From Methanosarcinales archaeon (lineage in GTDB: Archaea; Halobacteriota; Methanosarcinia; Methanosarcinales; Methanogasteraceae), in contig JAUWGA010000001.1 of the NCBI GenBank assembly GCA_030606635.1, positions 1 to 35,237 on the forward strand: a DNA stretch of 35,237 nucleotides, in the 5' to 3' direction. The notes under the pieces are model-generated. The model did not search any database, was not told where the DNA came from, and worked only from the letters and a program-made list of their open reading frames with translations. The position numbers and the translations under genes were made by a program. Positions 5,072-34,721 of the stretch are shown one piece after another (positions within the stretch are counted from its first letter, which is position 1; the number at the start of each line of letters is the position of its first letter).

Positions 5072-5884
5072 TCACTCAGGAAGCGGGGGAAATCCGGGTC
5101 CGCCCGACGCTCCGTCAAGTATCTCGCCACCCATTTCGCCAAGCACTGTGAGATCAACGATCTCCGCACCGGCAGGGAGGTCAAACGTACTGTCCGGGAT
5201 ATTCGTATCCACATCAAACTCTGTGACCTCGTAGTGCACGCTCTCGGATTTGCCCTCGTATGTGCACTCATAGTCGAGCAGTAGCGTGAACCCGGTCTGC
5301 TTGTCCACGATCAGGTCAGCTCTTCCCATGCCGATATCTTCGCGGCCGAGTGCTCCGGCAGGTTGCCATACCTTGCTGTAGTCCAGTTTGACGGCCTTGC
5401 GACCCAGGCACGTTGTGTCGCTGTCTGTGATCCAGCTATCATCCCATGCGGAATCGTCGCTATAGCAACCATACGCCGCCCAGAACGGGTTTCCAAATCC
5501 GATGTTATCATCGGAACATTCCCCGGTTTTGATCACTGTGCCTTCCGCCTCGTCCACTATGTACATCCCATCCGCGTTCTGCAAGATGGTCATCGAATCC
5601 GCGCCATGGTTACTGCTGATCACCGACTTGAAGAACCAGACGTCTCCGGATTTCTTGCGCCATTCCTCAAATACGGCAGTATCCCCGTCATCGGTGGATA
5701 CGGTCGCTTTGTAGTGCAGGGAAGTCACATCGATCAGATCGAGATAATGTGCGATGCCGGATGGTACGCTCTCTTCTTGCGATTCATTCTGTTTGCTAGA
5801 ATCCGAGTCCACACAGCCGCACAACGTCACTGCGAGTACAAGAGCGAACACGACTGCGATTATTCTTACATGTTTCATTGCCAT
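5072..5884 (-). CDS. Secreted lipoprotein, hypothetical
   Basis: 270 aa. It has a signal peptide ending in the lipobox-like LCGC (MAMKHVRIIAVVFALVLAVTLCGC) and an acidic, Ser/Asp-rich mature part. Confidence 0.7.
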   Translation of the reverse strand: MAMKHVRIIAVVFALVLAVTLCGCVDSDSSKQNESQEESVPSGIAHYLDLIDVTSLHYKATVSTDDGDTAVFEEWRKKSGDVWFFKSVISSNHGADSMTILQNADGMYIVDEAEGTVIKTGECSDDNIGFGNPFWAAYGCYSDDSAWDDSWITDSDTTCLGRKAVKLDYSKVWQPAGALGREDIGMGRADLIVDKQTGFTLLLDYECTYEGKSESVHYEVTEFDVDTNIPDSTFDLPAGAEIVDLTVLGEMGGEILDGASGGPGFPPLPE

Positions 5885-6068
5885 ATCTCCTGTGTTTTAT
5901 GTTCGGTTTGAGCAGATTTGACTTGTTCTCTCCGCACTATAATAACTCTGCTTCTTTTTTTGGGCTCGTTTTATTGTCGCCTGAAGCGGTGCATCGCGTC
6001 GCGCTGAAGGGTGTTTGTAACGGGAATTTTTCTTAAATTATTCACCAACTATGCGAAGCTAAAAATCT

Positions 6069-6827
6069 CTAATCTTTGACCTTTATATAAAAAACATCAG
6101 GGCCATTTTTCATCTTAATATTTTTTAATTCAAATAAATTTGGATGCGCCTTAACAAGTAGGGATAATTGTTTGTATCCATAAGACCTTGGATCAAAACT
6201 CGGATCTAACTGGAGTAAACAATTTCCCACCGCGCCCAAATGCGCCCAACCATCCTCCCCTAAAGCCATTTCAAAAGCTTCTTTGAGCAATGGAATCGGA
6301 TCCGATATTTTCGCTTCTTCACCGGTTGTTAATAAACTCTTTAATTCCGTTTCATTTCCCCGGATGGACTCTTTAGGTGTTAGATTTTCAGTATAAATGA
6401 ATATGTTGCATGCATTTACGAATGCCTTCGGTGTTATGCTTTTACCAACCCCCATCACAAAAACACCGCTTTCACGAATTCTAGTTGCAAGTCTTGTATA
6501 ATCACTGTCACTGGAAACGATACAGAAACCTTCTACTGAATCGTCATGAAGGATATCCATTGCATCAATAATCATCGCACTATCTGTGGAGTTCTTGCCA
6601 ACCGTATAACGGAACTGTTGGATTGGTTGAATTGCAAGATTATTTAAAGTCTCTTTCCATCCATTCATATTTGGTGTAGTCCAGTCGCCATAGATACGCC
6701 TTATCGTAATTGGTCCGTGTTTACCCGTTTCAGCTAAGATCTTTTCAATTAAAGTCGGTTGTGCATTATCACCATCTATAAGTAAAGCAATTTTTATCTT
6801 ATTTGTATCATTAAACTGGTTGATCAT
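6069..6827 (-). CDS. NYN-domain (LabA/DUF88-like) predicted RNase fused to a C-terminal OST-HTH/LOTUS domain
   Basis: 252 aa. The NYN hallmark pattern is IALLIDGDN...YGDW...NSTDSAMIIDAMD...FCIVSSDSDYTRLATRIRESGVFVMGVG. The C-terminal ~70 aa (LLKEAFE...GWAHLGAVGNCLLQLDPSFDPRSYGYKQLSLLVKAHPNLFEL) is LOTUS-like. The gene is much more AT-rich than its neighbours. Confidence 0.8.
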   Translation of the reverse strand: MINQFNDTNKIKIALLIDGDNAQPTLIEKILAETGKHGPITIRRIYGDWTTPNMNGWKETLNNLAIQPIQQFRYTVGKNSTDSAMIIDAMDILHDDSVEGFCIVSSDSDYTRLATRIRESGVFVMGVGKSITPKAFVNACNIFIYTENLTPKESIRGNETELKSLLTTGEEAKISDPIPLLKEAFEMALGEDGWAHLGAVGNCLLQLDPSFDPRSYGYKQLSLLVKAHPNLFELKNIKMKNGPDVFYIKVKD

Positions 6828-7015
6828 ACTTGGATCACACTCCTGTTACCGTTCAATAAATTTAAAAACATTCTTCCAATAACTTTAAGGAATGGCGATT
6901 CACGTCCCCGGTCTATGAATACACTCATAAGTATTATACTTGGGAGGATACTATATATGCTGCTCTTGGCGGGAATGTAAGCCCACAACCCCGGCAGTTC
7001 CTGCACAATTGTCAT
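6824..7015 (-). CDS. Possible 63-aa linker ORF (hypothetical, may be non-coding)
   Basis: It has ATGA-type 4-nt overlaps at both ends, with the 388-aa gene upstream and the NYN gene downstream. I recognise no motif. It spans the GC-to-AT composition switch. Confidence 0.3.
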   Translation of the reverse strand: MTIVQELPGLWAYIPAKSSIYSILPSIILMSVFIDRGRESPFLKVIGRMFLNLLNGNRSVIQV

Positions 7016-24859: not shown

Positions 24860-24889
24860 GGTTTACGCCGTTTGAAAGGGGCTATCGAG

Positions 24890-27800
24890 TTATTCCAAAG
24901 AACGTTCGATTTCAGAGTGACACCATCCGGGTCTGCGCAGTAGGTTGAAAGTATCTATGTAACGGACTGATGCGCCCCCGGCAGCTGCAACAGCTTCATC
25001 AAGAATTCCCTGCGGATTCTGTGTGTCCCATAATGGATGAACGATAATAACCTTCATGATTCTGGTTTCAAATCCTGGCAGAGTTCCCCATGTTCGGGAC
25101 TGGTGGTCATCAAACTGTGATGCAAAGTTATCGGACAGTTTGGTAGCAAAATCTATCCAGCCATCCAATTCGGGCGTCGTGAACTGACCATCGAGCCCGC
25201 ACAAATACCGCGAGTCCTTGAGTATATGTAGATAAGCCAATGCAAGACGCCAGTCCAGAAGACCGTGATAATTCATGTTCCGGTACCTCATGAGACAAGC
25301 ATAACATGCAGAGTCACAGGAGGAACGATGCGACTCAGAAACAATCTTTGTAGGGAAGGAACCCGGATCATTCGGCGATACGATTCCATGCAACACTGAG
25401 TCCCAGTTATCAGATATCCAGCGCACAAAACCTGCCCCGTTGGCAAGGAAGTCGCTCAACGTGATAGCGCCCACATACATGCCGTCAACCTCCAGACACT
25501 GAAAATTACAAATTTCAATTTCATCAGGGTCTATATCCAGCCTCTCGGAAGCTGCCGCTCTCAAAAGGAATGCAGCAGAATAAATGGCTGCTTTGACACC
25601 ACCGCTGGAAGTGACCGGGTCAAGGTTTAAACCCGGAGGTACTGATAACGGTCTGAACCTTAAAACATCGGTCGTCTTACCTGCAGCAATGGCAATCCGC
25701 TGGATTTCTTCTGGTCGATCTTTGCTGACATAAGCAATGTAATCTGATGAAATCCACTGATTACCAAGAACGGGTTTTTCTGTTAGTGGATCCTTCGTAT
25801 CATGTCGGTACCCTCTTGTTGTAACCAATCCCCCCTCAAAAAGTTTTCCAGCGTTGTCGTTGATACGCCATACACGACACTCAGAGGAAAAACTTGTCTC
25901 GCAGTTAGAGCTTACTTTCGTGGAAAATTTTGATTCAGCGCTCTCCGCGACAGAGGTTGGTATTCCGTAAAGAATGTCTCCTCCTTCCTTAGCATCCTTG
26001 CCTCGTGATAGGTCTGTTCTGAATGCAAGCGGTACCGCTGCCAAGTAGCTTTTGAAGTACGGTCCTTGTGGTGTTTTGCAGTATTTGCACTCAGTTTCAG
26101 AGTGTTGCAGGTCGCTTACTATTATATTACCACATCTCAGACAGCGCACCATCCAGCGCGTGGAAAACGGGTCAGCAGCGAGAGGCGCCCACTGCCCGCG
26201 ACGGTTCACAAGAGGTGCTGTAAATCCAATGGCGGTATGAATGGCTTTATCCTTGGTTTTCTGAGCTCCTGGCGCAAATTCAGTAACCGCCAGCTCCAGA
26301 TCTCGATCTACTGTCGATTCTTTTCCGCGCAGTTGATGATAGAGCAGCCGGCTGCGTGACGGCATCCCATACATTGGCAGGATGCCGCCTTCAGCCAGTC
26401 GTTCTGCCAATCCTATTCCAGCTCCCGCGAGTTCTGGGTTAGTAGATGCCTGATCGATCGATTCAGGCAGTTTGTTGCTGAGATAGTCCAACCATTCCTC
26501 GATCTTTCGCTGGTCCACATTTCCAACGAGTGCTCTGATAACGTCCTCTCTTGAATCGTCTGTCCGCAGCCAATCCAATACCTGTTGCTGAACTTCATGC
26601 CACTTCTCGACAAACCCGAACTCACCATGGCTGTCTGGGGGCTTCTCGGGGCAGTCCCACCACCGCACTCCAGCATCCCAAAACGCTCTGCGCAGACATT
26701 CCCTTGCCAGCAGCCGCTGAACAATTCGCTCCTGTTTCATGGTGAGAAATGGCACCGGTGGGGCGCCGCCTGTAATCTGTTCTGGATTAGCAAAATAAAA
26801 CTCGTCGTGGCTGCGGCCGCGGCAGAGTGTGAGAACTGTTGCAAACGCCTGACCGCGTCGCCCAGCTCTGCCGACTCGCTGTTGATAGTTAAAACGCATG
26901 GGGGGCATGTTTGCGAGCATCACTGCCTGCAAGTCTCCGATGTCCACTCCAACCTCCAAAGTAGTTGTAACGCTGAGAACATCGATCTTATCAACCTTTT
27001 CAATAAGAACCTCTTCCTGTCCTGCAAGATCAACGAAAATGTCGCGAAAATGCCTCTGCCGTTTAGCCTGATCATCGGTCTGGGCTGTCAACTCTTCGCA
27101 GTGAAGTCTAATTGGAACGCGCTTCGCTTCTGCTGCTGCATAAGCCAGATAGTTGTGTTGCCAGAGATCCTTGCAGGTGTGGTTGGGCTGTTCTGGAAGC
27201 TGTTTGTGGCAGTTTGTACAGATTCCAGCAGAGTAATGCAGGTGTGGTCGGCGGCAGGTGTGGCATATCCACACGGGATCGTCTGGAAGAGCTACTTTTA
27301 CATCGAGACTGCTTGTTTGGATCATCCCGTTCTTATGCCCGGCTGTACGAAGTGCAGAGAATATTGCCGGACCGACGTCTCGTTCATTCAGCCCCCATTT
27401 TTGGCAGACGGCGCATACAAAGTCTCTGAAGCTGACACGGGCATCGCTATAGTCGGGCCAACCGTATTGTTTAAACTCAGATCCATCGTGGCGGTAGAGG
27501 TCGCCTAATATCCGCAAAGCAGAGTCGCATGCCTGCCGGAAACACTCTAACTGCTCCTGCTGGTGTCCTGCTTCAGATGCGTGGGTTTCAAGTTTCTGGT
27601 CATCAAGCCCCAATTTGAGATAACCAAGCCCTGAAGATTCCATGCTAAAATATAGGCGGCTGAAGAACAGGTCGCACAACCCTTCTCTAACCTTCTTGCG
27701 GAGTGTATTTTTAGCACGGTCCGTATCGGGTGGAAGCCCGTCTTTCCATCTCTTTTCTGTAAAATCGAAAAGTTCAGTCCAGCTGTGCCAGTTCTCTTCC

Positions 27801-30673
27801 CATTTGAAACGCTGTGCATCGAGGTCATTTCCAGCAGGATTCACTCCTGTACCGAGAAGTCTGCTGAGAAGCCTCCCGCATTCAGCAGTATTTCCTTTAT
27901 GAGGGTAGATCAAGTCGCTTACATGAACAACCCGCGACTTCCCTCGCTGCCTGATGATGTTGAGCCTTTGTTCGGCGTCATCCAAAGCATGTTGCAGAAC
28001 TATGTTGGCATGTTCAGGAAGTTCGACAGGGATGCCACCTCTAACCAATTCAACATCTCCACGGATCGCAGTATCAGATCCTGGGGTTTCTTCAACATAT
28101 TCTGCTGCAAGAGAACCGTATGTGGTACGGTTCTGTTCAATATCATCGAGCAATTGAGGTTCGCCCAGTGTTGCCATGAGCAGTTCGTGTATCACCGACT
28201 CACGGAGCAAATCCGAATAGTGGTTGCGCTCTACACCGTTGGAGATCTGTGCTGCATCTTCGCGGCTGTCAGAAAACGAAACAAGTTTGCGCCCTTCATC
28301 AGGTAACTGGTAGAACAGTTCTTTTGTGAGTATCTGGCTGACCTTGGAAAAACCAGTCCTGAAACCGCGTACAGGCGATCTCCGTGAGAGTTTTTTGGCG
28401 TAGTCTTTTGCGCAGCACGCACAGACCGAAGGAAGTGCGGTAAAGGACTCCCTCGCCTCATCACCTTCAGCATCTAATAGGGATCCGAATTTCTTTCCTT
28501 TTTTTGTGCCAATTTGAAAGAGATAGCCTTTCACCCAGTTATCCGGATCTTCTGAATATTTCTCATGCGACAGATCTACCCTCCCTGAACGTGTATCAAG
28601 ACTGGCAGGAGTCCACTGACCTTTTTTTACCGCCACCCCAATCCGGTTAGGTTGGCTCCAGATAGACGCGTCTTCATGAAGCTGTAAATTTCCAACAGGC
28701 CAGAACACAGCAAACTCCTTGTAAGTGCGGCGTTCGATAAAACGTGCTGCCTGTCGGTCAGGAATCCCCTCGATATCCGGATCTGATGGCAGCATTTCAA
28801 TGACACCCTCCCCGAGATCCAATCTGTTTCCACCAAAGTAAACAGCGCCGCAATGCTCGCAGAGGAGTAATTCTAGGACTCGACGTCCCTTTTTAGTAAT
28901 GATTCTCGGAGAAGAATATAATGTTCCGACTGGTCTTCCGTCTTCTGCGTATGCAGGCGGTTTGGTAGATGCCCACAACCCTTCAGTGCTGCGGAAAAAC
29001 CAGTGAAGGCGGAATGATGGTAGCGATGATTGTTCTCCTTCATCATCGCAAATACTACGAGCTGCAAGAAGTCCGCGGACAGCTTCCCGTCTATTTTCCC
29101 CTGATACTGCTGTTCCAAAGAGCTTCTCTGCAAAGTCATCGAGCGAAACAGCACGCGTTTCCCCCTCACACTCACATGCCTTCTGCGTTCTGGTGGCAAT
29201 GCGCATACCATCTGATTCCATCTGTTCTTTTAGAGCCAACTTTCCAGATGGTGCGTCTCCTCGGTACCCAAGAGAAACTGCTGCTTTCTGACAGGCATCA
29301 TCAGAAAAATCAGGCGCATCCTGACTGAGAGTAACGAACGGTTCGGATGGCAAAAAATCAGATCCGGCAATCTCTGGAATTTGATTTTGACGCCCCCGGA
29401 TTATCTCAAAGCTGTCTGCTTGAGCACCGAAGAAATCATGGAGAAATTCACGGCTTTTGGGATTGTCAGGGTCCAGCGAGGCGCTGGAGCTTAAGATGCG
29501 CAACTTAAGATGGTCTGGTGTAAGTCCCAGACGCAGGAGCAACAACCTCAAAAGATATGCCACCTCAGCGCCAGCCGTCCCCCTGTAGAGGTGCAGCTCG
29601 TCAATGATCAAATGAAACACTCTATCGTCCCCACCCGCCAACCACCGCCGCGTCTTCTCAAAGATGGGATCATCTATCTCGCGCATGAGCATGATGCTCA
29701 ACATCGAAAAGTTGGTTATCAGAATATCTGGCGGCGAGTCCTGCATGTCCCAGCGTGAACGCATCTCAGCACCATCAAGTTTGGGGAAATAGGACGTGAC
29801 ATCTGGCTTGTTGTTATCTTTGGCGTATCGCTCAGCAGCATCTGCGTCACGGTCCATGTCCATCAACACGCGAGTAAGTCTATCTATTCTCTTCCGGTCG
29901 GGGTTTCTGTTGCCATTGGCATTCGGCTCCTTAAATTCATGTCCCGGGATGGGTGTGCTGCCGTTGTAACGTCCAAAGTAGATTTTGTTCCCCTCTCGGT
30001 TATGCTGAAACCACTCCCTCGCGTCATCCGAGTCAAGAGCTTTGCGGAGGCGAGTAAGCTGGTCTTCAACCAGCGCATTCATTGGATAAATGATCAATGC
30101 ACGAACAGCAGCATCCCTCTGCTCGTGACCCCGCTGAGAAACTCTGTAAGAACGCTGTATCCGGTTGTGTTCGTTACAGCAGGAATCCTGCCACTGGCTA
30201 TCATTCCACCAGTTGTTAACGTGGGGGTCTGGCGTATCCGGGGCTACCCAGCCAGAAGACTCTCGTGCAAGGTAAGCGAATAGCGGAAGAAGGAATGCTT
30301 CAGTCTTGCCTGAACCGGTGCCGGCAGTAACCACACAGTTTGTACCTTCTAACACTCTTTTAAGCATTTCCGTCTGGTGGTCATACAGTTCGTAGTCTCC
30401 GAACAGACCACATGCAACCAACGACTTAAAATCGGATATTTCCTGATTGCTGAGTCCATGGAGGTCTTCTTCTTTTAAATCCTGAATAGTCTTCCCAGAT
30501 TTCTGGTATATTGGCAGCGGTTCAATCCAAGGTTCCTGACACAGGACCCCGAGCTCTCGCAGCAGTTCTTCCCTTTCAGCCTCTATGGATGGAAAACGGG
30601 TGCCGAATACAGTCTGTATGTACCGGATAAAGTTATCCCGGATAGTATCAAATGCGCCAACCGGGTCTTTCAT
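24890..30673 (-). CDS. Giant DEAH-box superfamily-2 helicase with internal Zn-ribbons and a C-terminal DUF1998/MrfA-type Zn-binding domain (DruE-like)
   Basis: 1,927 aa. Checked on the DNA: Q/Ia region LYDHQ, Walker A AGTGSGKT (30302-30325) and motif II DELH (29591-29602). Motif VI is QQRVGRAGRRGQ. The Cys pairs are CEHCG, CACC, CHTC...CTNC and CLRC...CKYC. The DUF1998-like signature is CDSACYACLMRYRNMNYHGLLDW (its first Cys codon at 25316-25318). Its ATG overlaps the upstream stop (ATGA). Confidence 0.9.
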   Translation of the reverse strand: MKDPVGAFDTIRDNFIRYIQTVFGTRFPSIEAEREELLRELGVLCQEPWIEPLPIYQKSGKTIQDLKEEDLHGLSNQEISDFKSLVACGLFGDYELYDHQTEMLKRVLEGTNCVVTAGTGSGKTEAFLLPLFAYLARESSGWVAPDTPDPHVNNWWNDSQWQDSCCNEHNRIQRSYRVSQRGHEQRDAAVRALIIYPMNALVEDQLTRLRKALDSDDAREWFQHNREGNKIYFGRYNGSTPIPGHEFKEPNANGNRNPDRKRIDRLTRVLMDMDRDADAAERYAKDNNKPDVTSYFPKLDGAEMRSRWDMQDSPPDILITNFSMLSIMLMREIDDPIFEKTRRWLAGGDDRVFHLIIDELHLYRGTAGAEVAYLLRLLLLRLGLTPDHLKLRILSSSASLDPDNPKSREFLHDFFGAQADSFEIIRGRQNQIPEIAGSDFLPSEPFVTLSQDAPDFSDDACQKAAVSLGYRGDAPSGKLALKEQMESDGMRIATRTQKACECEGETRAVSLDDFAEKLFGTAVSGENRREAVRGLLAARSICDDEGEQSSLPSFRLHWFFRSTEGLWASTKPPAYAEDGRPVGTLYSSPRIITKKGRRVLELLLCEHCGAVYFGGNRLDLGEGVIEMLPSDPDIEGIPDRQAARFIERRTYKEFAVFWPVGNLQLHEDASIWSQPNRIGVAVKKGQWTPASLDTRSGRVDLSHEKYSEDPDNWVKGYLFQIGTKKGKKFGSLLDAEGDEARESFTALPSVCACCAKDYAKKLSRRSPVRGFRTGFSKVSQILTKELFYQLPDEGRKLVSFSDSREDAAQISNGVERNHYSDLLRESVIHELLMATLGEPQLLDDIEQNRTTYGSLAAEYVEETPGSDTAIRGDVELVRGGIPVELPEHANIVLQHALDDAEQRLNIIRQRGKSRVVHVSDLIYPHKGNTAECGRLLSRLLGTGVNPAGNDLDAQRFKWEENWHSWTELFDFTEKRWKDGLPPDTDRAKNTLRKKVREGLCDLFFSRLYFSMESSGLGYLKLGLDDQKLETHASEAGHQQEQLECFRQACDSALRILGDLYRHDGSEFKQYGWPDYSDARVSFRDFVCAVCQKWGLNERDVGPAIFSALRTAGHKNGMIQTSSLDVKVALPDDPVWICHTCRRPHLHYSAGICTNCHKQLPEQPNHTCKDLWQHNYLAYAAAEAKRVPIRLHCEELTAQTDDQAKRQRHFRDIFVDLAGQEEVLIEKVDKIDVLSVTTTLEVGVDIGDLQAVMLANMPPMRFNYQQRVGRAGRRGQAFATVLTLCRGRSHDEFYFANPEQITGGAPPVPFLTMKQERIVQRLLARECLRRAFWDAGVRWWDCPEKPPDSHGEFGFVEKWHEVQQQVLDWLRTDDSREDVIRALVGNVDQRKIEEWLDYLSNKLPESIDQASTNPELAGAGIGLAERLAEGGILPMYGMPSRSRLLYHQLRGKESTVDRDLELAVTEFAPGAQKTKDKAIHTAIGFTAPLVNRRGQWAPLAADPFSTRWMVRCLRCGNIIVSDLQHSETECKYCKTPQGPYFKSYLAAVPLAFRTDLSRGKDAKEGGDILYGIPTSVAESAESKFSTKVSSNCETSFSSECRVWRINDNAGKLFEGGLVTTRGYRHDTKDPLTEKPVLGNQWISSDYIAYVSKDRPEEIQRIAIAAGKTTDVLRFRPLSVPPGLNLDPVTSSGGVKAAIYSAAFLLRAAASERLDIDPDEIEICNFQCLEVDGMYVGAITLSDFLANGAGFVRWISDNWDSVLHGIVSPNDPGSFPTKIVSESHRSSCDSACYACLMRYRNMNYHGLLDWRLALAYLHILKDSRYLCGLDGQFTTPELDGWIDFATKLSDNFASQFDDHQSRTWGTLPGFETRIMKVIIVHPLWDTQNPQGILDEAVAAAGGASVRYIDTFNLLRRPGWCHSEIERSLE

Positions 30674-31689
30674 GAGATCACTCCATTGCTGTCAGGTACG
30701 GTACTGTGGTCTATCAGGTTTTGCGATAGTTTCTCTGAAATCATCGTGGCGACAGGTGGGGGTACAGCACAGTAGATATCCATGGGATGTCCGGCAGGCA
30801 CCCCTCCTACTGACTGCTCACCCATGCGCGCTGGTGCTGGAGCCAGTCCGGTGCAGAGGGTAGCAGCTCTTGCCAGAAAGCGTGGAAGCGGCACATACGC
30901 GGGCACAGCCAGCTGATGGCGCCGTTTGTCATATAGCAAGACATCCGCCCCTTCGTCTGCAATAATCATATATCGCCCCCAGTCCCGATCCACTTCAGCC
31001 GCCCGGTTACTATCCCAGATCCAGTGACGTTTCTGCTGGCTCCTGGGATCGGTATATTCAACCAGTCCCTGCACGTTTTCAGTATTGTGGTTCTTGGAAA
31101 AGGTCAGAGTATTGGCAGAAAAAGTTCGTTTGAGCCAGTTGATATCGGCTCTATCCTCATAAGATAAGTTATGCCTGACATTTCCAATTCCTGCCGAAAA
31201 ATTAACCAGCGACCATGCAGCCGGCGCCGTTAGATGGCATCCTATCTGTGCGGCTTGAGCTACTTTCTGAAGATGATCGTGATCGACCGCCTCGATGTAG
31301 ATCGCTGGAGGAAGGAGGGGGTGCTCACTTCTCTGCAATTTGATGCTATGTGAAACAGAGTTCCGGTTACCTTTTGCAAAATCTTTCATCTTCTGAACCA
31401 TCGAGGGAGTCCTGGCACCTGTTAAAACCGCTTTGGGCAAACCATACGGCGGCAGGGCAACAAGAACAGGTGGGCAGGCAAAAACATGGCGTTTGTCAAA
31501 ATTGAACTCGCAATGGCCCAACGAGTCCAGATATCGGATAGTCTGGCGCCGGACGTGATTAAGATCGACTTCGCTTGTCGATATTCCGGGTAACTGGCAC
31601 AGTGCATCAAAGGCAGCATTGAACTTATCTATGCTCATCCGCCCACTCGTGCTGATGGCTTGCAGAAGTAACTTAGACACGTTTTGCAA
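30670..31689 (-). CDS. Hypothetical protein (~335-339 aa), middle gene of the helicase cassette
   Basis: Long ORF with a 4-nt ATGA overlap onto the helicase start. The listed start at 31689 is a TTG directly abutting GGGAGG. A GTG at 31680 sits 9 nt after that GGAGG and is the more likely start. I recognise no domain. Confidence 0.8.
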   Translation of the reverse strand: MQNVSKLLLQAISTSGRMSIDKFNAAFDALCQLPGISTSEVDLNHVRRQTIRYLDSLGHCEFNFDKRHVFACPPVLVALPPYGLPKAVLTGARTPSMVQKMKDFAKGNRNSVSHSIKLQRSEHPLLPPAIYIEAVDHDHLQKVAQAAQIGCHLTAPAAWSLVNFSAGIGNVRHNLSYEDRADINWLKRTFSANTLTFSKNHNTENVQGLVEYTDPRSQQKRHWIWDSNRAAEVDRDWGRYMIIADEGADVLLYDKRRHQLAVPAYVPLPRFLARAATLCTGLAPAPARMGEQSVGGVPAGHPMDIYCAVPPPVATMISEKLSQNLIDHSTVPDSNGVIS

Positions 31690-33733
31690 CCTCCCTGTAC
31701 TTATTCCATATGTCCCGGATTTTCGGAAGCGCTGGATATCCGGTCTTCTGATATTCAGTCTTCTTACGTTTGACCCATATCGCTTCCCTCCACCGTTTTA
31801 CAGCATGGAGATTGCTTATTGCATGGTTGGGGTTAGGTATGGTTCCTGCATCTTCAGGCTGCCCGCAGAAATGGACAGGCCATTTATCCGTCTCAGACTT
31901 GTCGACTGCCCAGACAGGCTGCCATTCATCTGGCAGATCCTCATCAGGCCAGTCTACTATTTCACCAGGTCTGGCACCTAAAAACGTGATTCTGCGTGAC
32001 AGGTATGTGGGAAGAGTCGGCGGAAGAACGGGGGGTGGACCAACGCCAGCAACAACTGCCCCTGTGGCGCATGGCATGGAAACATCGCCGATCAGCATCT
32101 GACCTGAACTGTCCCGCGATGGCACATCCTTAAACGATACCGGAAGTTCCGGTTCTTCCAGCCTTATCACATGCTTCTGCAAAGGATCCGGTCCATCTTT
32201 GAAGACCCGAATATTTAATGGGCAGTTAACGGGTGCATCGGCAGGGATGTGCCAGCGAGCAATGGACACATCTTCTCGCTTGAGTTCATCTTCGTTGAGC
32301 GTGACACGTTCACTTCCGTCACCGCCTTCTATGACGATTAGCGGAGGTCCGAACTTAAGATATCTGTTGCCCCGTCCGATCTTTATCCCGCCTTGAAGCC
32401 GGATACGCAACAGGCTGGAAAGCGTGAGTACGTCAACACCCTCGCAGGATTCATGCGCACTCCTGCCTTCAAATATCGCCCATCCAGAAGGTAGCCCTTG
32501 AAGCAACTGTTCTTCGAATTTTTCGCAGCAGTCAGTTCCCCACCGCTGCACATCCGCCACCCTGCTGTCGCTGCACGCTACCATAAACTCACAATTTCGT
32601 TCCAGACGTTGTGATTCAACCCACCCTGGAAGCCCTTCTCTATTTCCTAGCAGGAAAAGCCTCACATCAGTCCCTTTGAGGTGTGCTCTCCATTTGTTTT
32701 CTTTATCCTCAAACCTTACACCAGTAGACCAATTTACTGTTGCCGCATCCAATGGTCGTTGAGGTCGTATGTTGGTGTTCGTCAACTTTGTTGACCAGTT
32801 TGGCATAGTCTCTCTGCACGAAACCATTTGTCCAGCATATTCGAATTCAAGACCGTTATCTGGAAATGGACGGTTGGTTTTGAGCCGGAGAGTTGGTGCA
32901 ATTGTTCCTGAAACTCTGTTCAGTTCGAGACAGATGCGTAGTCCCACTTGTGAGGGGGTGTGATCTAAATCTGATATGGTGTACGAAATAACACTCCCAT
33001 CCCAGTCAACAAGTTCATTGAGTACAAGATCGATGAGTGCATTCACCATCTCAATGCTATCACCTTGTGTTCCGTCCAGAAGTTTCAAGGTGCGGTTTTC
33101 CAGCCCATCCTTACCGTAGCTCAATAGAACTCGCCTGATTACTGCATCAGAAGGGGTATCAGTCGGGTCAAGTTCTGCTTCACTGAAGATCAGAGGTAAA
33201 TAATTCCGCTCATCATCAGACAGGAGAGTTTGTGATAATGGACGCCCGACATGAACCTTGCCACCGCGAATGCGTGCAGCGAAGCGCCCCAATTCTTCAT
33301 GTTTGTCTTCTGTACTCCACTTTTGCAAGTCTTCCCACAGTTCCGCCATGTGGTCAAAGTGTAGCGGTGTGCCTGAACCACCAGGTTCGCCTAACAAGGG
33401 CCAGAGTTTGGGATAATAAGCTTTTGGATCATAATCCCCGCCTCTAGTTGCCGCTAAGACGAAAAGTGCTAAATATGCAATATACGGAGGATATTCCAGA
33501 TTTTTGATTCTCCAGCCACGATAAGATTGTAAAGCCTTATTGCATATAGCACCCTTTGTTGCCCAATCCGGACCGACTTTAACAGACTGTATAAAATCTT
33601 CAACGTCTGCGCCCGTCTCTACTCCTATCTGGTTTATAGTATCTTCATTAACATATAGCAGCACTTCCCGTCCAGCCATCATTTCATTGAAAAACTTGCG
33701 GGCTATAAGATTATTCCATTCTATGTAGTTCAT
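31673..33733 (-). CDS. Hypothetical protein, 686 aa, first large gene of the helicase cassette
   Basis: Uninterrupted ORF with an ATG start. It overlaps the next gene by 8-17 nt. I found no nucleotide-binding, nuclease or methyltransferase motif. Confidence 0.85.
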   Translation of the reverse strand: MNYIEWNNLIARKFFNEMMAGREVLLYVNEDTINQIGVETGADVEDFIQSVKVGPDWATKGAICNKALQSYRGWRIKNLEYPPYIAYLALFVLAATRGGDYDPKAYYPKLWPLLGEPGGSGTPLHFDHMAELWEDLQKWSTEDKHEELGRFAARIRGGKVHVGRPLSQTLLSDDERNYLPLIFSEAELDPTDTPSDAVIRRVLLSYGKDGLENRTLKLLDGTQGDSIEMVNALIDLVLNELVDWDGSVISYTISDLDHTPSQVGLRICLELNRVSGTIAPTLRLKTNRPFPDNGLEFEYAGQMVSCRETMPNWSTKLTNTNIRPQRPLDAATVNWSTGVRFEDKENKWRAHLKGTDVRLFLLGNREGLPGWVESQRLERNCEFMVACSDSRVADVQRWGTDCCEKFEEQLLQGLPSGWAIFEGRSAHESCEGVDVLTLSSLLRIRLQGGIKIGRGNRYLKFGPPLIVIEGGDGSERVTLNEDELKREDVSIARWHIPADAPVNCPLNIRVFKDGPDPLQKHVIRLEEPELPVSFKDVPSRDSSGQMLIGDVSMPCATGAVVAGVGPPPVLPPTLPTYLSRRITFLGARPGEIVDWPDEDLPDEWQPVWAVDKSETDKWPVHFCGQPEDAGTIPNPNHAISNLHAVKRWREAIWVKRKKTEYQKTGYPALPKIRDIWNKYREVAKRV

Positions 33734-33834
33734 ACTTTTCTGTCCTGTTCAGCAATTTCTAACCGCTTTCCACCACTGTTCAAGTACTTCATTGCGAAAT
33801 TGTCTATGGATATCTTTGCTTTTACTTTCACCAT
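33730..33834 (-). CDS. Candidate leaderless 34-aa micro-ORF at the head of the cassette
   Basis: My own translation gives MVKVKAKISIDNFAMKYLNSGGKRLEIAEQDRKV*. Its TGA overlaps the ATG of the 686-aa gene (ATGA). Its ATG lies 27-34 nt downstream of a TTTATAAT box, which is the spacing expected for a leaderless archaeal mRNA. Confidence 0.3.
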   Translation of the reverse strand: MVKVKAKISIDNFAMKYLNSGGKRLEIAEQDRKV

Positions 33835-33860
33835 ACCCTAAAACTTATAGAACTTCATGG

Positions 33861-33868
33861 ATTATAAA
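33861..33868 (-). promoter_or_regulatory. Archaeal TATA-box candidate for the helicase cassette
   Basis: The minus strand reads TTTATAAT (consensus is about TTTAWATA). It is centred about 30 nt upstream of the micro-ORF ATG and about 130 nt upstream of the 686-aa ATG. Confidence 0.35.
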
Positions 33869-34052
33869 GTTTGTTAGTGCTGCAGTTGTATTCGTGGTAA
33901 TCTGCTATGAACAATCGCCCATGGCAACGTTTGTGCGATAAACTCGCAGGACACCGTGAAAACTCCGAAAGCCCGATCTCTATCGAACACCTTTCAAGCT
34001 GACACAGCCTCTGAAGACTGTTACGGGCTCAGATCGTTCGAGGCGCGTCTGT

Positions 34053-34721
34053 CTACATCCACCTCGTAAGATACTCGACCGCCTCGACAACGCCTGCACC
34101 ATACTCGCCAGCGGTCACGAGATCGGCAGCACCCTTAAGTGCAGGATGCGCATTTCCGACAGCGACCCCAAATCCAGCTGCGGCAAGCATCTGTATATCG
34201 TTTTCAGAGTCCCCGATGGCAGCAAAGTCGCTTGCATCGATACCCATGAGACCAGCTATCCGGAAGAGTCCGGTTCCCTTGTCCACATCCTTGCTCTTCA
34301 GATGGATGGCGTAACCGGAATCCACAACATCGATCCCCTCGCCAACGATCTGCCGCGCATCCGCGGCATCAAAGTTCCTCCGAAGCGCTATATCGGTCTT
34401 CCTGTACTCTGAATCGAGTTTTTGGATGTGCACACCAAGATGTTCTGTCAATACATCAAACGCACGCTCACATGCATCGATATCGCCATCGTAGTACTCC
34501 TTGCCATCGTATTCAAGCGAGATTACGCCGCCGTTCTCTGCTATGATCTGCCCGCCGGTTCCGATCAGTTTTGCTGCTGCCCTTGCAAAGCAGAGCACGT
34601 TACCGGTGGCAAGCACGATCGGGATATTAAGCGAGCGAAGGCACGCAACTGCGCGGCAGTCGATGCTCCGGTCCTTATGCGTCAGCGTGCCATCGATATC
34701 GATCGCAATCGCCTTTATCAT
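34053..34721 (-). CDS. HAD-IIB phosphatase, archaeal phosphoglycolate phosphatase type
   Basis: 222 aa. HAD motif I is AIDIDGTLT, motif II is LATGN and motif IV is [11 protein letters not shown]. Length and layout match archaeal PGP/SPP-like enzymes. Confidence 0.8.

Follow-up and report, generated by a model that had tools for sequence, protein, structure and literature searches.

A predicted three-gene Druantia type IV operon within an accessory insertion of an ANME-2c archaeon

Described Druantia systems and classification of the cassette

Druantia type II was reportedly described by Doron et al. in 2018 as the gene set DruM-DruF-DruG-DruE. A cassette of three genes, druF, druL and druE, which is assigned here to Druantia type IV, was analyzed in a 35,237-nucleotide (nt) stretch of DNA from a Methanosarcinales archaeon (GenBank assembly GCA_030606635.1, contig JAUWGA010000001.1, positions 1 to 35,237; hereafter, the window). 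Type IV was defined as DruE and DruF as in type II, without DruM or DruG, plus the hypothetical protein DruL, and 168 instances from 11 phyla were recorded in RefSeq v201 (Payne et al. 2021, PMC8565338). In the searchable literature, type IV appears only in PMC8565338 and one review, and no experimental test of it was found. Types I and II have together been named 'Type IV CoCoNuT', and the YprA family has been reported to include all DruE proteins, which combine an OB-CON-DUF1998 module with numerous additional zinc motifs (Bell et al. 2025, PMC12458937).

The cassette was classified by matches of its proteins to PADLOC hidden Markov models and by gene order and strand, rather than by the PADLOC pipeline itself. 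To our knowledge, DefenseFinder holds models for Druantia types I-III only. DruE, a YprA/MrfA-family superfamily 2 (SF2) helicase of 1,927 amino acids (aa; 24890..30673, minus strand, ATG start), matched both DruE2 (PDLC00014, 1,917.7 bits) and DruE4 (PDLC00051, 1,867.5 bits) over residues 1-1924. The 686-aa DruF (31673..33733, minus strand, ATG start) matched DruF4 (PDLC00054, 741.3 bits) over residues 1-686 and profile positions 1-678 of 678, and it matched DruF2 at full length with 731 bits. DruL (30670..31680, minus strand) matched DruL4 (PDLC00056) with 357.4 bits (E = 1.3e-107; residues 7-328, profile positions 4-322 of 330). With match E-values of 0 to 1e-107 for the three proteins, chance is no concern. 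The genes are adjacent, co-directional and overlapping in their stop and start codons, as in the type IV layout. Given that the set of DruF, DruL and DruE is the published type IV definition, the cassette is classifiable, and these matches place it in the already catalogued Druantia type IV. The host is assigned to the methane-oxidizing anaerobic methanotrophic (ANME) archaea of group ANME-2c, close to Candidatus (Ca.) Methanogaster. Exact-sequence look-ups of the window proteins found none on record. What is new here is a minimal member, from an ANME-2c archaeon, of a subtype that is already known by prediction.

The cassette shares with Druantia type IV the same three signature proteins, their order and strand, and the absence of DruM and DruG, and the core is identical. 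Relative to the type IV-like loci collected below, the window lacks DruK, a DruM-like C5 methylase and Vsr/Mig, and its host is an ANME-2c archaeon. Type II is similar in that the window DruE scores best on DruE2, DruF aligns with DruF2, and DruL also matches the C-terminal region (~300 aa) of the long, ~1,000-aa DruF2 profiles. It differs in that the window has neither DruM nor DruG (DruG profiles hit none of the four cassette proteins and none of the ten further window open reading frames (ORFs) scanned) and in that DruF is divided into DruF and DruL, and the cassette looks like a type II relative with a split gene. The type I partners DruA (DUF4338), DruB, DruC and DruD gave no PADLOC or Pfam hits in the cassette or the scanned window ORFs, and the DruE1 profile matched the window DruE partially (616 bits, in 4 stretches). 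Type III (DruH-DruE), the only type with recent studies of mechanism and structure (2026 preprints), likewise has a giant helicase of the YprA family, with a matching C-terminal C-x3-C-x2-C cluster; however, no DruH hit was obtained in the window and the DruE3 match was fragmentary (341 bits in 6 stretches). Type III DruE carries PLD nuclease domains (Bell et al., PMC12458937), and no PLD domain was found in the window DruE by Pfam. MrfA/YprA (PDB 6znp) has the same SF2 DEAH core and putatively also shares the C-terminal Zn-Cys DUF1998-type module, whereas the window DruE is 2.5 times larger, contains many inserted domains, is accessory rather than core and has no MrfB partner. A YprA-family helicase is also common to DISARM, from which only helicase-C fragments of DrmA were matched (E = 1e-9), with no DrmB, DrmC or methylase found.

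The original prediction, which had been made from the window alone, described the cassette as Druantia-like but unclassifiable, with no described partner set, and as a plausible new subtype or new immune system. The full-length matches to DruF4 and DruL4 and the publication of type IV in 2021 overturn the claims of an unclassifiable cassette and of a missing partner set, whereas the reading as Druantia-like defence is right; the existence of a fitting subtype removes the novelty, although not the defence role. Its observations that the DruA of type I, the methyltransferase of type II and the DISARM partner genes are absent agree with the searches above. Its proposal of a DruE-type terminal gene also stands: by its DruE2 and DruE4 matches and intact motifs, the gene is assigned to the DruE-type, YprA-family helicases. 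A DUF1998/MrfA-type Cys cluster, likewise claimed, was recovered in part. The C-terminal cluster SSC-DSA-C-YA-C (C1786-x3-C1790-x2-C1793, followed by a tail of ~130 aa) aligns with the same motif in the solved DruE-like structures 9wae and 9tu7, but PF09369/DUF1998 gave no Pfam match in DruE at E <= 0.1; the DUF1998 feature is thus putatively present by motif, without confirmation by the Pfam profile.

The DruE motifs comprise Walker A (K123), DELH (358-361), motif VI (QRVGRAGR, 1265-1272) and eight CxxC, and Pfam recognized DEAD and Helicase_C only. Among solved structures, 9wae_A (1,970 aa) aligned over the whole protein (E = 1.4e-256), 9tu7_Y (2,108 aa) with E = 1.2e-44, and MrfA (6znp) over the helicase core only (E = 4e-10). 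The 9wae entry belongs to seven deposited structures (9wae / 9waf / 9wds-9wdy) of a 1,970-aa 'Helicase' that aligns with the window DruE at full length, and no paper describing 9wae was found in the searchable literature. The series may represent the first structures of a non-type-III DruE, and 9tu7 appears to be a type III DruE.

A DruL profile was searched against 1.84 billion representative proteins and returned 1,278 relatives at E <= 0.001. In protein P0420 (1,099 aa), DruL forms the C-terminal part (766-1098) and DruF lies before it, and P0446 (1,006 aa) consists of a full-length DruF and then DruL. The N-terminal ~700 residues of both share 30-31% identity with the window DruF, which is aligned over its entire length (E = 7e-104 and 9e-95, respectively). 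As judged from these alignments, DruF and DruL correspond to the long DruF of type II-like systems split in two, and because they form a single polypeptide in other lineages they would be expected to act as one physical unit.

Neither protein has a name in Pfam or NCBIfam, even when all members of both alignments were scanned, and sequence and profile searches of the PDB with DruF and DruL gave nothing significant. The AlphaFold model of DruL was predicted with a local distance difference score (pLDDT) of 91 and a template modelling score (pTM) of 0.90, and the AlphaFold2 model of DruF with a pLDDT of 83 and a pTM of 0.72. In the DruF model, the N-terminal domain (~1-245) is helical, the middle (~260-620) is rich in beta structure, and helices form the C-terminus. 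Foldseek found no match at E <= 0.001 for the DruL model in the PDB and BFVD or for the DruF model in the PDB (template modelling scores < 0.2 in both cases), where the queries were whole proteins and single-domain matches may be missed. A PIN-like nuclease at DruL residues 110-178 was considered and rejected, as the match to RNA-free RNase P (HARP) was marginal (E = 0.067) and had no Foldseek support.

Distribution, companion genes and insertion site

DruL patterns were scanned in one genome per species, and 27 loci were found in the 185,579 species genomes. The archaeal hosts were ANME-2c (Ca. Methanogaster), other Methanosarcinales, ANME-1 and Bathyarchaeota, and the bacterial hosts were Planctomycetes, Aminicenantes, Omnitrophica, Latescibacterota, Firmicutes, Cyanobacteria and Chlorobium. 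All loci of sufficient length, in archaea and bacteria alike, keep the order DruF-DruL-DruE (28 loci). DruL was also present on two cyanobacterial plasmids, one of which is MOBF-mobilizable, and was absent from the GenBank phage collection. ANME-2c archaea matter for marine methane oxidation, and their virus defences have been little studied.

A viral contig (IMGVR_UViG_3300014204_013752, 772-18867; L037) encodes DruF-DruL-DruE together with a DruK-like exonuclease and a DNA methyltransferase, ~5 kb from genes for a major head protein and a head-tail adaptor, which suggests carriage by a virus or provirus, or a contig that includes host DNA. On an uncultured Methanomicrobia contig (L012, 3938-11002), two tandem DruF-DruL pairs precede a single druE. 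One metagenome-assembled genome, CBDUWK01, contains two type IV cassettes (L003 and L004) whose DruL proteins are 93% and 67% identical to that of the window; either the genome carries two systems or the bin is mixed.

Companion genes were found by clustering the neighbours of 28 loci. DruK, a PD-(D/E)xK protein of ~360-390 aa that matches the PADLOC 'DruK' profile and, more weakly, Cas4, is encoded immediately after DruE in 16 of the 28, frequently with an overlap at the DruE stop. A C5 DNA methylase (DruM2 profile PDLC00030, ~450 bits) accompanies the trio in 16 loci as well, and T:G mismatch repair is represented in 14, by Vsr in nine and by an HhH-GPD glycosylase (Mig) in five. The Vsr genes belong to eight bacterial loci and the Bathyarchaeota locus, and the HhH-GPD genes to euryarchaeal loci (ANME-1, Methanosarcinales and relatives). 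Such companion stretches follow druE in L001 (9152-12108), L003 (9188-12276), L027 (11769-14789) and L009 (9199-12417). L001 and L003, the loci with the DruF and DruL most similar to those of the window (87-93% aa identity), carry DruK, DruM and a mismatch repair gene, and L003 adjoins the same phosphatase gene as the window cassette.

No DruK, DruM or Vsr/Mig was found in the 35-kb window or in 16 kb of L002, the cassette locus of Ca. Methanogaster sp. E20ANME2, and the best tblastn match to a DruM-like sequence in the window had an E-value of 0.63. The form with three genes only also occurs in several cyanobacterial loci and on plasmid pCENA543b. Because most relatives carry DruM and DruK and the window has neither, the cassette is, by its gene content, a reduced three-gene variant and not a new system. 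Druantia types II and IV have already been catalogued; the locus offers a compact three-gene version under purifying selection. The usual partners (a Cas4-like nuclease, a 5-methylcytosine (m5C) methylase and T:G mismatch repair) frame hypotheses on self/non-self discrimination. Type IV was published as a system without DruM, whereas a DruM-like methylase is present in most of the loci collected here.

The cassette lies within an accessory insertion of ~9.2 kb (approximately 24882..34070, minus strand), whose extent was determined by comparing its junctions with the empty-site contigs L029, L030 and L031. These contigs were obtained via close homologues of the phosphatase gene. In the window, the order of genes is RadA, phosphoglycolate phosphatase, the cassette, and then an FAD-oxidase/CCG gene, a bactofilin-like gene and fumarase; among the 27 related loci, L002 alone has the same gene order around the cassette. 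At the empty sites, RadA and the phosphatase are retained, and 28 nt separate the phosphatase stop from the stop of the convergent FAD-oxidase gene. Flanking genes of the cassette-free L029 and L030 are 92.6-94.6% identical to those of the window at the nt level, versus 90-92% for the cassette-bearing L002; because the cassette-free contigs are the closer relatives, presence of the cassette does not track relatedness. The insert replaces the last ~6 codons of the phosphatase gene, and its other end lies ~8 nt beyond the druE stop. The phosphatase C-terminus accordingly reads ...YLTRWM* in filled sites (window 34053-34070) and ...YLTSCKI* in empty sites.

Searches for a tRNA, an integrase, or direct or inverted repeats flanking the insert gave nothing; a possible short CAGACG/CAAACG repeat at the junctions was too weak to count, and the GC content of the insert does not deviate. 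The cassette is an accessory block, patchily distributed and mobile. Conservation of the trio as core genes in synteny, the outcome that the original prediction had named as speaking against it, was not observed, as shown by the empty sites and the sparse loci across phyla. This polymorphism of filled and empty sites provides a clean natural comparison in ANME-2c populations.

Between the window and L002, the ratio of nonsynonymous to synonymous substitution rates (dN/dS) was 0.29 for druF, 0.30 for druL and 0.21 for druE, compared with 0.08-0.24 for the flanking housekeeping genes, and dS of the cassette genes (~0.27-0.34; druL 0.08) was comparable to that of the flanks. All three genes are full length against their profiles, with no stops or frameshifts, and the DruE motifs are intact. 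The three genes are under purifying selection over substantial time. Compared with L001, nt identity is 94-99% over much of druF and druL and 71-82% from the druE start onward, and dS rises from ~0.1 (druF/druL) to ~0.75 (druE). A recombination breakpoint was located near the druL/druE boundary, at window positions 30500-30700, in comparison with L001 and L003. This pattern of alignment indicates modular exchange at the druL/druE boundary and a mosaic cassette, whose modules seem to have been exchanged between ANME-2c lineages.

Proposed mechanism and competing explanations

We consider it probable that the cassette is a minimal Druantia type IV operon, horizontally acquired between the phosphatase and FAD-oxidase/CCG genes of an ANME-2c archaeon, with the following mechanism. 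DruF and DruL would form one functional unit that docks on or regulates DruE, and DruE would act as an ATP-driven DNA helicase/translocase of the YprA/MrfA family that loads on invader DNA and stops its replication. In full systems, DruM is probably responsible for marking self DNA, the nuclease is probably DruK, and Vsr/Mig would repair m5C deamination damage. Because the cassette contains no DruM methylase and no DruK nuclease, self/non-self discrimination would here not be methylation-based and would more likely proceed by abnormal DNA structure, such as exposed single-stranded DNA (ssDNA) or forked replication intermediates. Type III DruE senses such structures, according to two 2026 preprints (PMC13192584, 10.64898/2026.05.13.724758), and by analogy it is plausible that type III and the window system share this logic. 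Degradation of the invader would then fall to an activity within DruF, DruL or the DruE tail, or to host nucleases.

Several points weigh against this reading. The defence role of the cassette is suggested by homology and association, and the transfer of the type III mechanism would be an analogy, as the DruE3 profiles match in pieces only. No recognizable nuclease or methylase was found in the window cassette by Pfam, PADLOC or tblastn, and the Vsr-like C-terminal domain of type I/II DruE has been predicted to be inactive (Bell et al., PMC12458937). The cassette is also solitary: ten further window ORFs gave no PADLOC hit, and the cassette is not part of a defence island. In L002, an insertion of ~190 nt (5150-5340) with CTAAGT on both sides replaces the last DruF residues and separates druF from druL, which breaks their overlap. 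Either a small mobile element or incipient decay could explain this insertion.

Whether the trio is sufficient by itself is a more tentative matter. It is possible, though we would not rely on it, that DruF-DruL-DruE is an autonomous immune module that operates without methylation and without a known nuclease, with DruK, DruM and Vsr as an optional add-on and with DruF/DruL as a new sensor or effector coupled to the giant helicase. If so, the ANME-2c copy would provide a natural 'minimal system' for dissecting types II/IV, and an example in archaea.

The small gene set could instead result from loss, in which case a five- or six-gene ancestor (DruF-DruL-DruE-DruK-DruM-Mig, as in L003) was deprived of its nuclease, methylase and glycosylase and left a disarmed remnant that is decaying or has residual activity. 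Loss would account for the DruK, DruM and Mig of L003 beside the same phosphatase gene, for the frequent position of DruK directly after DruE (16 of 28 loci), for the disrupted 3' end of DruF in L002 and for the lack of a detectable nuclease in the window cassette. However, the window ORFs are full length and keep their catalytic motifs, with no stops or frameshifts, their dN/dS of 0.21-0.30 matches that of the housekeeping flanks, and the same three-gene form is found independently in several cyanobacteria and on a mobilizable plasmid; a remnant is therefore regarded as unlikely. We judge it more doubtful still that the trio is completed in trans, as a restriction-modification-like Druantia that works with a methylase and/or nuclease encoded elsewhere. 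The linkage of the methylase is indeed loose, since L012, L018, L019 and L022 encode it apart from the operon, either upstream or on the opposite strand, but neither the 35-kb window nor the 16 kb of L002 contains such a gene.

A housekeeping DNA-repair or replication helicase complex, comparable to MrfA/YprA, would be in keeping with the family of DruE (6znp, E = 4e-10) and with the position of the cassette two genes from radA. That adjacency is due solely to the position of the insertion, and the empty sites of the closest relatives, the extreme sparseness of a family that crosses phyla, its carriage on a plasmid and a viral contig, and its association with methylase, nuclease and Vsr genes make a housekeeping role very improbable. 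Least credible of all is a new, unclassified helicase-based immune system: DruF and DruL are nameless in Pfam and NCBIfam, yet the dedicated PADLOC profiles DruF4, DruL4 and DruE4 match at full length, and type IV was described with this gene set in 2021. The minimal type IV operon is retained as the preferred explanation.

Operon structure and surrounding genes

The three genes look like one translationally coupled operon. As described in the original prediction, they lie on the same strand at the coordinates given above and are joined by overlapping codons, with ATGA at the druL/druE junction (30670-30673) and ATGA again where the druF start meets an upstream micro-ORF (33730-33733). The druF/druL overlap, which had been given as 8-17 nt, is most likely the 8 nt GTGTCTAA (31673-31680), which applies if druL starts at the GTG at 31680. 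DruL is 336 aa long from this GTG and 339 aa if the TTG at 31689 is used. The GTG is the most likely start by sequence comparison, because homologues begin at the equivalent MSELLLQ, because the close relative L002 has ATG at the same position, and because a strong Shine-Dalgarno sequence, AGGGAGGT, lies 7 nt upstream. A Shine-Dalgarno sequence, GGAGTGATC, also lies ahead of the druE ATG.

A candidate archaeal TATA box, TTTATAAT (33861..33868, minus strand), is the sole strict match to TTTAWAWW on the coding strand of the entire 9.2-kb block (read from 33868 to 33861), which bears out the earlier proposal of a single TATA candidate and one operon; on the strength of its sequence and position it is likely the operon promoter. 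In L001, where the cassette occupies a different genomic location, homology to the window starts ~10 nt upstream of the TATA box, and because it begins just there the promoter appears to travel with the genes. The non-coding DNA upstream of the promoter (33869..34052, minus strand) is part of the insert by alignment and junction sequences; it is common to L002 and L003, absent at empty sites and not found in L001. A bacterial promoter/terminator scan was uninformative for an archaeon.

Between the TATA box and druF lies a 5' leader (33734..33860, minus strand), which contains the micro-ORF of 34 codons (33730-33834, minus strand). This micro-ORF had been suggested as a possible fourth gene, and that suggestion was rejected: a +1 indel breaks its frame in L001, several indels that are not multiples of 3 do so in L002, and an in-frame TAG interrupts it in L003. 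The upstream ~130 nt are conserved as DNA, and not in frame, in these three closest cassettes. The micro-ORF was called by a gene caller in the near-identical contig L036, which is a prediction. By this comparison it is most likely not a gene, and the region would be a plain 5' leader. No structured RNA leader was indicated by folding (z = -0.04, nothing unusual), and the leader had no Rfam match.

The genes around the cassette are ordinary archaeal housekeeping genes, as the original prediction had noted from the gene context. The region upstream of radA is likewise variable among L029, L030 and L031. In L030 (3079-6027), a 982-aa TIR-WD40 protein is encoded between uvrC and a methyltransferase gene, which are adjacent in L029, and in L031 (2491-5269) a 749-aa SIR2_2 protein and a HicAB pair are encoded upstream of radA. 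These genes resemble additional defence-type insertions within this neighbourhood. Elsewhere in the window, the gene at 6069-6827 (minus strand) encodes an NYN nuclease domain fused to an OST-HTH/LOTUS domain and gave no PADLOC hit. GC content over window positions 6001-7000 dips sharply to 0.38, compared with ~0.51 for the window, and the region of this gene may be foreign DNA.

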